Below are positions 5,693-56,498 of a stretch of 64,000 nucleotides of DNA, one piece after another. The DNA lies in NCBI RefSeq assembly GCF_044324875.1, contig NZ_CP172185.1; one strand, written 5' to 3'. Numbering within the stretch: position 1 is the first letter of the stretch; each line of letters begins with the position of its first letter. A program made the translations under genes and the position numbers. The DNA is from Escherichia coli. Its GTDB lineage: Bacteria; Pseudomonadota; Gammaproteobacteria; Enterobacterales; Enterobacteriaceae. The notes beneath the pieces are model-generated. The model was given only the letters and a program-made list of their open reading frames with translations, was not told where the DNA came from and did not search any database.

Positions 5693-5860
5693 AATGGCAG
5701 CCTCCACGTTGAGTATTGATAACTCACCACCGAGGCTTTCCACGACCATAATGGTGGTGAGACGTACAGGGGTGGAAATACCGGTCAACGTAGAACCCGG
5801 CCAGCCTTGCGGCTGCCCTGCACGCCCCACCATAATCTGAATGTGGCTGTGCTTCACGCA

Positions 5861-5884
5861 TAAAAAAACCGCCTGAGCGCGGTT
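5861..5884 (-). terminator. Rho-independent terminator-like hairpin on the minus strand
   Basis: Minus-strand AACCGC-GCTCAG-GCGGTT followed by a T-run; lies between dicF and the Rha-like gene. Confidence 0.5.
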
Positions 5885-6167
5885 GTGCGCTACGTTTGAC
5901 TTCGGGTTTCCACGCCCGGCACCCGGTTTATGAGGTGCAGGTGCACTATAATTCCACCCGTACTGGTTTTCAATAGCTACATTCAACATTTTCTCTTACC
6001 TTTCATCACCGAAGTGAACTTTGTTGATGCGGTGCCAGGTGCCTCCAGGTGACGTTAACCAGTTAACAATTAACGCCGGATACAGAGAATCCACCCATAA
6101 CTCTGTTTTTGGTTTTAACTGTTCCACGTGCGATCAGCCGCATTCACCACATCACAAAATTCACTTT

Positions 6168-6225
6168 AAAAAGGGCGGCAGAGCAGTCACGGAGTAAAAC
6201 TGATACCGCAAAACGTCACCAGAAA
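6168..6225 (-). ncRNA. dicF: DicF sRNA homolog (ftsZ-targeting sRNA of Qin-type prophages)
   Basis: Minus strand reads TTTCTGGTGACGTTTTGCGGTATCAGTTTTACTCCGTGACTGCTCTGCCGCCCTTTTT, nearly identical to the recalled K-12 DicF (one difference) and ending in its own terminator. Lies downstream of a DicA-like repressor as in Qin. Confidence 0.7.
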
Positions 6226-13215: not shown

Positions 13216-13451
13216 TTTTATGGATCACCTTTCTGATTGATTTCATATTGGCGAGGTGACGGGAGTTAAGTAGAATTGCTGCGGGTGCTTGAGGCTATCT
13301 GCCTCGGGCATGAACACCAACGGCAGATAGAGAAAAGCCCCAGTTAACATTATGCGTCCTGCAAGACGCTTAACATTAATCTGAGGCAGAATCTATGTCT
13401 AGCAAATGTAGGTTAGCCTCTTACGTGCCGAAAGGCAAGGAGAAGCAGGCT

Positions 13452-13607
13452 ATGAAGCAGCAAAAGGCGATGTTAGTCGCCCTGATCGTCATCTGTATTA
13501 CCGTCATTGTGACGGCACTGGTAACGAGGAAAGACCTCTGCGAGGTACGAATCCGAACCGGCCAGACGGAGGTCGCTGTCTTCACAGCTTACGAACCTGA
13601 GGAGTAA
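13452..13607 (+). CDS. hok: Hok/Gef-family membrane toxin (type I toxin-antitoxin)
   Basis: MKQQKAMLVALIVICITVIVTALVTRKDLCEVRIRTGQTEVAVFTAYEPEE (51 aa) closely resembles HokD/RelF. Track ORF 13395..13607 carries an in-frame upstream extension. Upstream leader has inverted repeats. Confidence 0.8.
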   Translation: MKQQKAMLVALIVICITVIVTALVTRKDLCEVRIRTGQTEVAVFTAYEPEE

Positions 13608-16158: not shown

Positions 16159-16524
16159 ATGACTGAAAGCATAGAATTTGTTTTGCCTTACCCGCCAACG
16201 GTGAACACCTACTGGCGACGTCGTGGCAGCACATATTTTGTATCAAAAGCCGGTGAGCGTTATCGCCGTGATGTGGCGCTCATTGTTCGCCAGCAGCGGC
16301 TGAAGTTAAACCTGTCCGGACGGCTGGCGATAAAGATTATTGCAGAGCCACCGGATAAACGTCGTCGTGACCTGGACAATATCCTGAAAGCACCACTGGA
16401 TGCGCTGACGCATGCCGGACTTCTCATAGACGACGAGCAGTTTGATGAAATCAATATTGTGCGCGGTCAGCGCGTTCCTGGGGGGCGGCTGGGCGTGAAG
16501 ATTTACAAAATTGAGAGTGAGTGA
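16159..16524 (+). CDS. rusA: Holliday junction resolvase RusA
   Basis: 121 aa; PPTVNTYWRRRGSTYFVSKAGERYRRDVA...DKRRRDLDNILKAPLDALTHAGLLIDDEQ matches the RusA family. Confidence 0.85.
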   Translation: MTESIEFVLPYPPTVNTYWRRRGSTYFVSKAGERYRRDVALIVRQQRLKLNLSGRLAIKIIAEPPDKRRRDLDNILKAPLDALTHAGLLIDDEQFDEINIVRGQRVPGGRLGVKIYKIESE

Positions 16525-17111
16525 TCGTAAATATGATATACCCGGAAATTACAGGCAAAAGCGGCGAGCATTTACGTCTAAAAACGCTGGAAGCCGTCTG
16601 GATCCAGGGGAAATTACGGATGTGGGGGCGTTGGTCGTATATCAGTGGAGGGACTAGCGGTAACATGTTTAACCAACTGCTTGTATCCAGCAAAATTACC
16701 AAAACTGCAATCAACGATGCGCTGCGCCGTATGAAAAAGTCAGGCATTACGAAACCAGAGCTCGAAGCTTATTTGCGCGAAATACTCAACAGTAAAAACA
16801 AAAGTAGTCTGGCGTTTTGCTCGGACGATGAAGGCCTGAAGATTGACGGTGTGATCGCCTCGGTGCTGATGAATAATGATTACCGTTCTCTATACGGTGT
16901 GATTGTTGGCCGGTATCGTCTGCGTAAGAGCAAGTTGCAAATGGCCAATGAGCTTCATATTAAACATCCTGACTGGGCGCTCATTACCTGTCGCCGCCGA
17001 GTTGACACATGGATAAGTTTGGCCGAATCGCTCCTGTACGTTCCACTATGTGATGCGTTTGGCACAAATAGCGACAGATTTAAATTGCAAAGTGAGCAAG
17101 AAAGTGCTTGA
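16521..17111 (+). CDS. Late-gene antiterminator Q-like protein
   Basis: 196 aa directly upstream of the tR'-like terminator and lysis genes. LEAVWIQGKLRMWGRW resembles the conserved N-terminal motif of phage 82/DLP12-type Q proteins. Family assignment is tentative. Confidence 0.6.
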   Translation: MIVNMIYPEITGKSGEHLRLKTLEAVWIQGKLRMWGRWSYISGGTSGNMFNQLLVSSKITKTAINDALRRMKKSGITKPELEAYLREILNSKNKSSLAFCSDDEGLKIDGVIASVLMNNDYRSLYGVIVGRYRLRKSKLQMANELHIKHPDWALITCRRRVDTWISLAESLLYVPLCDAFGTNSDRFKLQSEQESA

Positions 17112-17160
17112 ATTGTGATAAGCTCGGGACGAAAAGCGAACTGAGCAACATAATAGTAAG

Positions 17161-17186
17161 AACCCGCCATTGTGCGGGTTTTTTTG
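17161..17186 (+). terminator. Rho-independent terminator (tR'-like) about 50 nt after Q
   Basis: AACCCGC-CATTGTG-CGGGTT followed by TTTTTTT. Confidence 0.6.
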
Positions 17187-17510
17187 TCTGCACAACAGGT
17201 AAGAGCACTGAACCCGCAGACCTCGCGGAACTGGTGAAAGGTGCCGCGCAGTGCTCTTATCGTTGTGGTGAAGCTCAATGGCGAGCTAGCAGATAGGCGA
17301 CAGTGAAAATACTAGTCATGTATCTGACCGCCGCGCGTACTGCAATCGGCAGCGCACCGATGGAAGCCGGTTCGATTCCGGCCGCCACAACCCAAACTGA
17401 GCCGTAGCCACTGGCTGTCCTGAACTCCTCAGTGATAGTTACGCTGCGGCCTTCTTTTTCCCCTTCCTAATACAAGAACTACGCAATCCGTTACTGGCGG
17501 AGGCGTTGCT

Positions 17511-17726
17511 ATGAAATCCATGGATAAGATAACAACGGGTGTCGCCTATGGCACCTCGGCAGGCAGTGCCGGGTACTGGTTTTTACAGTGGCTTGATCAG
17601 GTTAGTCCGTCACAGTGGGCTGCTATTGGTGTGCTGGGGAGTCTGGCACTGGGCTTTCTGACTTATCTGACGAATCTGTATTTCAAAATTAAAGATGATC
17701 GGCGCAAAGTGGCGCGGGGAGAGTAG
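17511..17726 (+). CDS. S: Holin, phage 21 S21 pinholin type
   Basis: 71 aa; [71 protein letters not shown] is near-identical to recalled S21. GGAGG RBS. Confidence 0.9.
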
Positions 17727-17729
17727 GCG

Positions 17730-18041
17730 ATGAATAAAAAATACGAACTGGTTATTAAAGGGATAAGTAGTCACCCGGATAAGGTTGTGGTTACTGTGGC
17801 GCTGGAGAGCGACGGCTATCCGACGCTGTTTTCGCCGCATGTGGTGATTAAGCTTGATCGTGTTGACGGCGCAGCGCTGGAGCTTTATGAAGCAGAGGCG
17901 AAAAAACGAGCGAAGAAGATTTTTATGGATGCTGCTGCCGGGTTATGTGAAGCGTGGTCGTTGCCGGAAAAGCGCCTCCATTCAGAGGCGCGGTATACCA
18001 TAAAAATTAACGGTTCAGATAACTCAATTGCTGGTTTTTAA
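17730..18041 (+). CDS. Hypothetical protein (103 aa) inserted between holin and endolysin
   Basis: Starts 4 nt after the holin stop with GGAGAG upstream; no known motif. Confidence 0.5.
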   Translation: MNKKYELVIKGISSHPDKVVVTVALESDGYPTLFSPHVVIKLDRVDGAALELYEAEAKKRAKKIFMDAAAGLCEAWSLPEKRLHSEARYTIKINGSDNSIAGF

Positions 18042-55870: not shown

Positions 55871-56498
55871 TATGTATTCCCTTGTGATTATAATCTTCAT
55901 GAATATATCAATAAGTGCCGTTATCCAAAAAAAAGCACATTTGGATACTATTCTATGAAGTTCATTTTATTTTAAAGATTACATGTAACAAATATATTTA
56001 AAAGATTTCAAAATGTTTCTAATCTATTTAATATAATTCAGAATTATGAATTCTAAATATAAATATTCATGAAAATTATAAATGTATATCAATATGTTAT
56101 GAGTTGAGCGGAAACATAGGGGGTATCAATGATTGTTGCGCCAAACGGCTGGTGTGATCACGCGCACATTAATGAAGGCATAAAAAAAGCCGGCATCATG
56201 CCGGCCCAAAAAAAATAAACAAGACGATAAAAGGCTAATAACGGAAGCATCATGACACAGAATAATAAAAAGGTATAATTGTAATCAGTGCTAATATATT
56301 GATTGAATGAATTAATAAAGCCGATATCAAAGATAAATAAAATCGCTCAAAACGATTTTTCCTGTATTCACTGCCGTTGCGCAAAAATTATCTATTTGTT
56401 CAAAAAATGATTGAGTCTTGACTGGCTCATCCAATGTGGAAAAATGTGACTTTTATCACATAATAGTACTAAGTCTGAATTTTCCGGGTTATCTCAAA

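Follow-up and report, generated by a model that had tools for sequence, protein, structure and literature searches.

A conserved tRNA-shaped RNA element in the late-operon leader of a lambdoid prophage and in unrelated phage settings

A stretch of 64,000 nucleotides (nt) of Escherichia coli DNA (RefSeq assembly GCF_044324875.1, contig NZ_CP172185.1), which we refer to as the window, contains a lambdoid prophage. In the late-operon leader of this prophage, immediately 3' of the terminator tR', lies an element of about 130 nt with the outline of a transfer RNA (tRNA) into which an additional arm has been inserted. Its sequence and structure conservation, its distribution among phages and the modular slot that it occupies identify it as a conserved structured RNA. 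The element is undescribed and absent from Rfam 15; our literature search found no description of it, and the only usages of "tRNA-like" encountered there concern attP or insertion-site remnants. What could such an RNA be for? With moderate confidence, and judging from sequence comparison, we propose a functional leader RNA module that would be excised by RNase III and the tRNA maturation machinery as a tRNA-scaffolded, dimerising small RNA.

Table 1. Positions of the element, its parts and its surroundings, counted from the first letter of the window; "cells" are the base-pair cells of the alignments described in the text, bp stands for base pairs.
Feature	Position	Strand	Evidence or remark
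tRNA-shaped RNA element, ~130 nt	17262..17391	+	covariance model R1, BLAST homologues, covariation
Acceptor-like stem, 9 bp	17262-17270 pairs with 17383-17391	+	double changes in 5/9 pairs; 97.4% of cells paired (61 copies)
D-arm GCUC-AAUGGC-GAGC, with GG of the tRNA elbow	17273..17286	+	nearly invariant; 99.2% of cells paired
Extra arm P3, 55 nt	17289..17343	+	two stems, double changes in 3/4 and 5/7 pairs
Self-complementary hexamer ACUAGU, candidate kissing-loop dimerisation site	17311..17316	+	self-complementary in 73/73 distinct copies
Hairpin P4, AUCGG-CAGCGCA-CCGAU	17345..17361	+	anticodon-arm size; two independent compensatory doubles
T-arm GCCGG-UUCGAUU-CCGGC, canonical T-loop	17366..17382	+	double changes in 3/5 pairs; 99.7% of cells paired
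Hairpin P0	17191..17267	+	core 17198-17210 pairs with 17249-17261 (13 bp); extension adds 6 bp
Downstream hairpin (8 + 12 bp), then CUUCUUUUU	17401..17459	+	fold -27.9 kcal/mol, z = -5.4
Q-type late antiterminator gene	16521..17111	+	Pfam DUF1133 E 1.6e-90 and Phage_antitermQ E 1.8e-8
Candidate late promoter PR'	17059..17086	+	TTGGCA-16-TAAATT, consensus matches 9/12; consensus match only
Intrinsic terminator tR'	17162..17186	+	AACCCGC-CATTGT-GCGGGTT then T7, read from sequence
Phage-21-type holin S gene, first gene 3' of the leader	17511..17726	+	Pfam Phage_holin_2_1 E 2.3e-35

A first-pass annotation, made from the letters of the window alone, had pointed out a T-arm, two acceptor strands, a D-arm, an anticodon-stem-like hairpin and an inverted repeat in this region, and each of these parts is present where it had placed them. 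The 5' acceptor strand reads TGTGGTG at 17264-17270, or GTTGTGGTG when started at 17262, and the 3' strand, CGCCACA at 17383-17389, can be extended to CGCCACAAC ending at 17391. The T-arm is composed of GCCGG (17366-17370), TTCGATT (17371-17377) and CCGGC (17378-17382). The same annotation had remarked that the 5' half lies some 60 nt further upstream than a normal tRNA allows. This spacing is real, and it consists of a conserved, covarying arm of 55 nt at 17289-17343 rather than of decay. The arm, P3, is grafted between the D-arm and the anticodon-arm-like hairpin P4; from its base upwards, it is built of a stem GCAG/CUGC, an internal loop with AUA facing GCGCGUA, a second stem GGCG.CAG/CUG..CGCC and an apical loop of 20 nt. 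A home-made covariance model, R1, which has the window sequence in its training set and yields rough E-values, matches 17255-17399 with 174 bits, 7-8 nt of flank on each side included. Compared with shuffled sequences, the folding energy gives z = -4.1 for 17262-17394 and -3.6 for 17186-17400.

Is this fold maintained by selection? We compared copies of the element in an alignment of 61 distinct sequences, A2, and in a wider set of 73 distinct sequences. In A2, 96.9% of pair cells are paired, as against 85% in column shuffles and 29-47% with slid partners, and 18 pairs have changed on both sides; the observed values were reached by none of 500 shuffles, a statistic that overstates independence because the sequences are related. 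The 73-copy set retains 95% of pair cells paired and adds compensatory changes in P4, where the doubles AUCAG/CUGAU and AUAGG/CCUAU were contributed by a second scan. Compensatory changes are present in the helices of the unit, including the inserted arm P3, and the D-arm is nearly invariant. The D-loop GG and the T-loop GUUCGAnUC are invariant in A2, with a single exception in the wider set, and a tRNA elbow is therefore expected. The internal loop of P3 reads GCGCGYA in 69 of the 73 copies. The loop of P4 is CAGCGCA in 55 of the 73 and ends in CGCA in every copy; with A at position 33 and C at position 37, it lacks both U33 and a purine 37 and is therefore not a decoding anticodon loop. G-U pairs are plentiful, for example U-G at acceptor pair 8 in 25 of 61 copies and at one pair of the upstream hairpin P0 in 19 of 23. 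This suggests that the RNA would be read from the + strand, since these pairs would be A-C mismatches on the other one. Single-base insertions and deletions are located in loops, which argues against a coding region. Together with the stem-type covariation, these 1-nt loop indels led us to reject a protein-coding reading of the 34-residue open reading frame at 17303-17407.

The first-pass annotation had left two options, a decayed or interrupted tRNA or another structured late-leader RNA. The former would make the element a neutral pseudogene of a tRNA that once lay 3' of Q, and indeed true tRNA genes occupy the same slot in the relatives phage L and Sf6 (PMC8022706), in agreement with the remark of that annotation that some lambdoid phages carry tRNA genes there. 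Neither ARAGORN nor Rfam calls a tRNA at the site; when P3 is removed in silico, the remaining core folds at a relaxed ARAGORN threshold into a cloverleaf resembling tRNA-Arg(gcg), a result that supports tRNA ancestry of the element, and nothing more. Decay is contradicted by the pairing of 95-97% of cells over 61-73 distinct copies with many double changes, the inserted arm included, by the near-invariance of the parts that are not tRNA-like, and by a palindromic loop that is kept palindromic. Moreover, at least 120 viral contigs carry the unit, its genomic settings are of several unrelated kinds, and an intact ancestor lacking the extra arm was not found. A unit that is conserved in unrelated settings with compensatory changes therefore does not behave like a pseudogene, and a pseudogene is essentially excluded because of the covariation. 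The second option is borne out, since the helices covary and the folding energy lies well below that of shuffled sequences. That annotation had been ready to give up its proposal if no RNA model matched and related prophages showed no conservation; a model hit is indeed missing from ARAGORN and from Rfam at gathering score, but the element is conserved in other phages at 73-99% identity.

We also considered intron-like splicing of P3, and rejected it: the core that would remain still lacks U33 and a purine 37 and passes ARAGORN only at the relaxed threshold, and no splicing system linked to the element was found.

How does the element compare with known RNA classes? ARAGORN reports neither a tRNA nor a transfer-messenger RNA (tmRNA) at the site and calls only a tRNA-Ser at 869-958 in the window. 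A scan with Rfam 15 at gathering score assigns no family to the site, and the tRNA model RF00005 finds no match in 17050-17560 even at E<=10. At this relaxed cutoff, Rfam returns only terminator-driven chance matches and a partial hit to tmRNA (RF00023), which scores 20.2 bits against a threshold of 47 and covers only the T-arm and the 3' acceptor strand. With canonical tRNA (RF00005) the element shares an acceptor stem, a 4-bp D-stem with GG in its loop, a 5-bp T-stem with a GUUCGAnUC loop, and a 5-bp hairpin with a 7-nt loop followed by a 4-nt variable region; it also sits in a slot, or beside neighbours, where phages carry tRNAs. The features of a tRNA elbow are thus all there, namely the D-loop GG, a T-loop with UUCRA and a 5-bp T-stem placed on the acceptor stem, and T-stem and acceptor stem covary. 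Departures from tRNA are an acceptor-like stem of 9 bp, A8 where tRNA has U8, and an inserted arm of 55 nt; the anticodon-like loop, which lacks U33 and a purine 37 (A33, C37), is displaced by this insertion from the standard distance to the D-arm. Nor does its structure look unconstrained, as that of a tRNA pseudogene would. The tRNA-like domain of tmRNA likewise combines an acceptor stem and a T-arm with a remainder replaced by other structure. In contrast to tmRNA, the element has no reading frame, no pseudoknots and no G3-U70, possesses a true D-stem and measures only 130 nt. The YrlA model of Y RNA-like RNAs (RF02553) gives no match, and the element ends in an acceptor-like stem, not in a Ro-binding stem.

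In the apical loop of P3 lies a hexamer whose sequence varies while its self-complementarity is kept in every distinct copy. Seven versions occur among the 73 copies: ACTAGT in 37, TCTAGA in 14, TCGCGA in 13, GCTAGC in 4, ACCGGT in 2, TCCGGA in 1 and TCTGGA, with one G-U pair, in 2. The loop bases flanking the hexamer are not complementary. An intramolecular partner was considered and rejected, as no second copy of the hexamer lies within 400 nt in 60 of 61 cases. Self-complementarity that is kept through sequence change is what a loop-loop (kissing) homodimer predicts, and a dimeric DNA-binding protein is disfavoured because it would be expected to conserve the sequence itself. On these sequence grounds, the element RNA probably dimerises through the hexamer. 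A parallel is the dimerisation initiation site (DIS) of HIV-1, which likewise presents a 6-nt self-complementary sequence in an apical loop, varying by lineage with self-complementarity retained. By comparison, the loop of the element is much larger (~18-20 nt), its hexamers are A/U-rich, and its dimer is a candidate.

The distribution of the element extends well beyond lambdoid phages. BLAST of its 143-nt core against phage genomes finds 92-99% identity in the lambdoid or podovirus genomes HK75, vB_EcoP-611R6 and PhiR5_2, and equally in the unrelated Salmonella phages Skate, seszw and Akira. Homologues of ~80% identity are found in Pantoea phage PdC23 and Salmonella phage gmqsjt-1, and one of 73% in the P22-like phage BIS08P22, just 5' of its N gene; the segment is thus 73-99% identical across unrelated phage backbones. 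Three settings recur. The element lies in lambdoid late leaders, in leaders of N genes (3' of nutL and 5' of the N ribosome-binding site), or next to true tRNA genes of Salmonella skateviruses. A signature-pattern scan of IMG/VR retrieved at least 120 viral contigs, and the second scan, anchored on the D-arm, again at least 120, with 15 further variants. In complete E. coli genomes the element is present in 163 of 5426 and the surrounding leader in 604. Among about 100,000 species representatives, the signature is confined to 4 genomes: three belong to Enterobacteriaceae, and the fourth is a metagenome bin of Cellvibrionaceae. Each phage has one copy, at variable positions. RefSeq annotates nothing under the element apart from an occasional "hypothetical protein".

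The copies in Skate and Akira lie on the strand opposite to their neighbour genes, ~100 nt 5' of a true tRNA-Ile or tRNA-Met, and promoter-like sites precede the skatevirus and Akira copies. Here the element behaves as an RNA gene, which speaks for the excised small RNA that we propose. By size and setting, these copies resemble rnaC and rnaD of phage T4, stable RNAs of 120-140 nt located among phage tRNA genes that are not known from operon leaders. A further subfamily, distinguished by the acceptor strand ATTGTGATG (loci L014, L023, L027 and L037), has an intrinsic terminator GGCTACCTTCGGGTGGCCTTTTTT immediately 3' and another terminator 5', which is the layout of a discrete small-RNA gene.

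Could the conservation reflect recent horizontal spread of a DNA-level element, such as a recombination boundary, an attC-like folded site, or a sequence that is targeted by a homing endonuclease or travels along with it? Copies are 92-95% identical across lambdoid phages and skateviruses or Akira, different cassettes are found between identical flanks, and the flanks in CUS-3 are annotated as "boundary sequences". P0 resembles an attC site in its layout of short outer box, bulged base, inner box and variable centre, and one family of HNH (AP2-type) endonucleases is encoded within 3 kilobases of the element, in several placements, in 23 of 129 loci. A maintained cloverleaf with a tRNA elbow would nevertheless be meaningless for double-stranded DNA, and the G-U pairs are strand-specific. 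Spread by recombination accounts for mobility, not for the pattern of substitutions. As to integron sites proper, GCACAAC/GTTGTGG deviates from the core-site consensus RYYYAAC/GTTRRRY at 1 and 2 positions, no integron-type integrase is encoded nearby, and no integrase family appears among the conserved neighbours of the element. We regard a DNA-level explanation as very improbable.

The HNH gene directly precedes the element in loci L023, L032, L035 and others and follows it in L006, L008, L004 and L123; in HK629 an HNH gene lies between the annotated pR' and the terminator (L132 48-560). These genes may represent homing-endonuclease traffic at a conserved site.

The inverted repeat that the first-pass annotation had listed as 10 bp and as a separate feature is there, with 11 perfect pairs between TAAGAGCACTG at 17200-17210 and CAGTGCTCTTA at 17249-17259, but it is no separate curiosity: it forms the conserved hairpin P0, which is part of the module. 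The core of P0 measures 13 bp when G17198-C17261 and G17199-U17260 are counted. Beyond it, CACAAC at 17191-17196 can pair with GUUGUG at 17262-17267, the six bases with which the acceptor strand begins; A17197 is then bulged, and the stem reaches 19 bp. Minimum-energy folding of the nascent RNA gives this 19-bp stem (z = -4.2 for 17186-17272), whereas in the full-length fold the acceptor stem wins and P0 abuts it without a single-stranded leader. P0 accompanies the lambdoid late-leader copies and, among others, those of Skate, Akira and PdC23; phage lambda has it as well. For most copies outside N leaders, the sequence 5' of the unit reads CACAACAGGTAAGAGCAYTG, then 35-85 hypervariable bases, then CAGTGCTCTTWYCGTTGTG, and the P0 loop (17211-17248) is hypervariable between phages. 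Across copies, 89.5% of P0 cells are paired, compared with 35-64% in slid controls, with only modest covariation within the main subfamily. A second subfamily has a P0 that is wholly different but complementary, AUCGCUUUG/CAAAGCGAU, and an extension CACAAU that matches its own acceptor strand AUUGUG. N-leader copies are preceded by a small hairpin, CCAAAG-loop-CUUUGG, whose CUUUGG can alternatively pair with a trailer CCAAAG. This pairing (GCUUUGG/CCAAAGC) lengthens the acceptor stem to 16-17 bp. Long helices thus always adjoin the unit, P0 in late leaders and the extended acceptor stem in N leaders. Pairing of the acceptor strand of N-leader copies with CACATC at the pL start was also considered and judged coincidental, since the pL start region is itself conserved and other copies do not compensate.

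The loop of P0 sometimes holds T-arm-like pieces, AGCGGTTCGATTCCGCT in locus L061 and GCAGAGTTCGATTCTCTGC in locus L028, with another instance in locus L007. They look like scraps of other tRNA-like cassettes.

The two alternative partners of the 5' acceptor strand suggest a conformational switch, in which this strand would pair either with its upstream competitor, the P0 extension, or with the true 3' strand, and the tRNA-like body would act as a sensor controlling processing or expression. The three-strand layout recurs in three subfamilies of unrelated sequence, as CACAAC/GUUGUG/CACAAC, as CACAAU/AUUGUG/CACAAU and, in N leaders including that of lambda, as CCAAAG/CUUUGG/CCAAAG; the nascent and full-length folds differ exactly at the 5' acceptor strand, and the invariant junction nucleotides resemble a pocket for a ligand or partner. 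Unlike in known riboswitches, however, where the competitor lies downstream, it lies upstream here, and no output element, be it a terminator or a mask of the ribosome-binding site, is paired with the freed strand. The covariation of the extension amounts to one or two events, and in skateviruses no regulated gene follows the copies on their own strand. A switch strikes us as improbable.

The RNA of the leader also contains a second long helix, the downstream hairpin of Table 1, which is kept in lambda, HK75, HK629, CUS-3 and PhiR5_2. It is possibly a second late-leader terminator, an RNase III site, or both. P0 and this hairpin (17401-17450) are the obvious 20-bp candidates for RNase III sites. 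P0 has a 19-bp fold and is near-identical in lambda, and thus qualifies as a helix of ~20 bp homologous to the lambda hairpins; by analogy with these, it might be cut by RNase III. Sites at which RNase III processes the lambda late leader in vivo were reportedly described by Daniels et al. (Virology 167:568, 1988; cited in PMC7547250).

Lambda itself has a tR', the P0 of the window and the same closing stem GUUGUG...CACAAC, and encloses a different interior of 75 nt. CUS-3 (L002 1586-1802) and HK629 (L132 688-806) keep the closing stem GTTGTGGTGAA...CGCCACAAC with interiors of ~205 nt and ~100 nt, whose first hairpins (CGCA/UGCG versus CACA/UGUG) and last hairpins covary. Homology of the lambda and CUS-3 interiors to the tRNA-like unit was considered and rejected: model R1 finds no match to these interiors in lambda and CUS-3. 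Rfam likewise has no match in the CUS-3 interior or the lambda late leader. A corresponding exchange is seen in N leaders. In phage L076, which has lambda's own N gene and nutL, the tRNA-like unit lies between GCTTTGGGGTGTGGTG and CACCACACCACCAAAGC, almost exactly the two base strands of the large hairpin of the lambda N leader, and the extended acceptor stem of the N-leader copies is identical to the base of this lambda hairpin, GCUUUGGGGUGUG.../...CACACCACCAAAGC. We take the large hairpin to be an RNase III site whose cleavage relieves N autorepression. Lambda thus has P0, the closing stem and the base of the N-leader hairpin in common with the element, whereas its interiors are other sequences. 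The leader is a fixed frame of hairpin and closing stem with exchangeable RNA cassettes, of which the tRNA-like unit is the most widely travelled.

Should the element then be seen as a purely cis-acting processing signal, whose shape and hairpins recruit RNase P and RNase III to cut the leader, the excised piece being without further function? Such a signal would release the lysis mRNA from the PR'-tR' leader in late leaders, and in N leaders it would split NUTL from the N ribosome-binding site. Both positions suit this idea, as does the interchangeability of the slot interior between phages: N-gene phages swap the interior of the large lambda N-leader hairpin for the element and keep identical flanks. 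The RNase III sites of the lambda N leader and late leader mentioned above point the same way. It leaves unexplained, however, the extra arm with its internal loop, the invariant P4 loop and the palindromic hexamer, as well as the free-standing skatevirus copies, where no mRNA follows on that strand. That each phage has one copy, at varying positions, furthermore suggests a product, not a site. We consider a cis signal unlikely, though it deserves more weight than the other alternatives.

We therefore return to the excised, tRNA-scaffolded small RNA, for which we infer transcription, processing, dimerisation and action in trans along the following lines. When Q drives read-through of tR', the module would be transcribed within the leader; in skateviruses it would be transcribed from its own promoter. 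RNase III would cut the two flanking hairpins of ~20 bp. P0 would at first hold the 5' acceptor strand of the nascent RNA, and the acceptor stem would close once P0 is cut or displaced. For the tRNA-like half, tRNA-type maturation would follow: RNase P, 3' trimming and CCA addition would finish the RNA and thereby shield it. The product would be a stable, tRNA-scaffolded small RNA, two copies of which could pair through the loop hexamer. Its putative working surface comprises the grafted arm with the invariant internal loop, together with the loop of P4; GCGC is present in both of these loops, and a tertiary contact might form between them. Excision would also separate the leader from the lysis mRNA. 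As to the target, our leading guess is tRNA mimicry towards a tRNA-binding factor of the host, because phages place the element where real tRNAs are placed.

The design has a laboratory counterpart. In 2007, Ponchon and Dardel reportedly introduced a tRNA scaffold for expressing RNAs in E. coli. This engineered scaffold likewise carries a foreign arm on a tRNA body and is processed by the host and stabilised; its insert replaces the anticodon arm, whereas the element keeps an anticodon-like arm and has its insert beside it.

Several points weigh against this proposal. The stack of 9 + 5 bp formed by acceptor and T-stem, and A8, are non-standard, so that recognition by RNase P and the CCA enzyme is not guaranteed, and in the modelled full-length fold the abutment of P0 on the acceptor stem without a leader could hinder RNase P. 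N-leader copies continue after the 9-bp acceptor stem with ACCA, but the window copy encodes no CCA: C-CAA follows the 9-bp stem, and C-CCA follows if the stem is read as 8 bp. The processing steps are inferred throughout. A kissing contact of 6 A/U-rich base pairs is weak, and no partner protein gene is consistently linked to the element across its settings. Since lambda and other phages retain P0 together with the closing stem but lack the tRNA-like interior, the cis function of the leader needs no tRNA shape. Finally, the search pattern behind the first alignment had fixed the P3 internal loop and P4, so that their invariance is partly built in, a bias that the BLAST set and the second, D-arm-anchored scan relieve only in part.

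If the RNA is indeed processed and stable, many prophages gain a new RNA gene, and the element would be a natural precedent for stabilisation by a tRNA scaffold as well as a rare candidate for a dimeric small RNA of bacteria. Few regulatory regions in biology have been studied as much as the late-operon and N leaders of lambdoid phages; RefSeq genomes nevertheless leave the element unannotated. The proposal also offers a concrete, testable role for the RNase III sites of the lambda late leader. A broader and distinctly tentative reading, which we consider possible, is that of a new class of tRNA-scaffolded RNAs of enterobacterial phages, which would be excised and stabilised by tRNA and RNase III enzymes of the host from leader transcripts or tRNA clusters, form lineage-specific kissing-loop dimers and act in trans as tRNA mimics, for instance as decoys or sponges for a host factor that binds tRNA, such as a defence nuclease directed against tRNAs, with the closing-stem slot, even in lambda and P7, as a general site of cassette exchange. 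A modular leader of this kind could explain how small RNAs of prophages are swapped between phages.

Further cassettes come to light in the phages mentioned above. The interior held by the lambda late leader (NC_001416, leader at L131 990-1160) recurs, unannotated and 83% identical, in tRNA clusters of rV5-like myoviruses (phage Murica, 701-785), where the copy is closed by a different stem. It is also 98% identical to a stretch of P7 (701-765) inside the loop of a P0-like hairpin. This lambda-type interior looks like a second family of unannotated structured RNAs. P7 (AF503408, 140-900) carries a whole array, which comprises tRNA-Asn, tRNA-Thr, P0 with a cassette, P0' with an HK629-type cassette, a tRNA-Ser-like gene (46.6 bits with the tRNA-Sec model of Rfam), a third P0-like hairpin holding the lambda-type cassette and, in last position, a cassette matching STnc100 of Rfam with 43 bits, below the threshold of 47.

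STnc100 and PasD are Hfq-bound small RNAs of prophages that adjoin Q genes (bioRxiv 10.64898/2026.05.13.724894). STnc100/PasD (RF02076) share the location of the element, adjoining Q and before the lysis genes. The STnc100 consensus moreover has the same scaffold, with a closing stem ..UGGUG/CACCA.., followed by AA(U), an initial hairpin and a final one that abuts the 3' strand, and the STnc100-like cassette of P7 lies 3' of a P0-like hairpin. STnc100 differs in lacking a T-loop and a D-loop and is described as an Hfq-binding small RNA that ends in a terminator. RF02076 has no match in the window at E<=10, and the Pas RNAs were rejected as the identity of the element, which is a different RNA.

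The neighbourhood of the element in the window is that of a late operon. A RusA gene lies directly 5' of the Q-type antiterminator gene, and a lysozyme gene 3' of the holin S gene; between these two genes of the lysis cassette, a DUF1327 gene is located at 17730-18041. The position of the candidate PR' fits a short PR'-tR' transcript, judged by its consensus match, and several weak matches to Rfam leaders and small RNAs have tR' as their terminator hairpin. In the region of this short transcript, 17106-17187, the isrK and isrJ models match weakly, with 13-20 bits that come mostly from the terminator, which fits the known class of short terminated RNAs from late promoters. Other RNA genes in the window at Rfam gathering score are a tRNA-Ser(cga) at 869-958, a C4 antisense RNA at 5750-5837, isrK at 5862-5938, DicF at 6173-6224, sok at 13283-13457 and rseX at 56182-56271. 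The tRNA-Ser near the start of the window may be the attachment site of the prophage.

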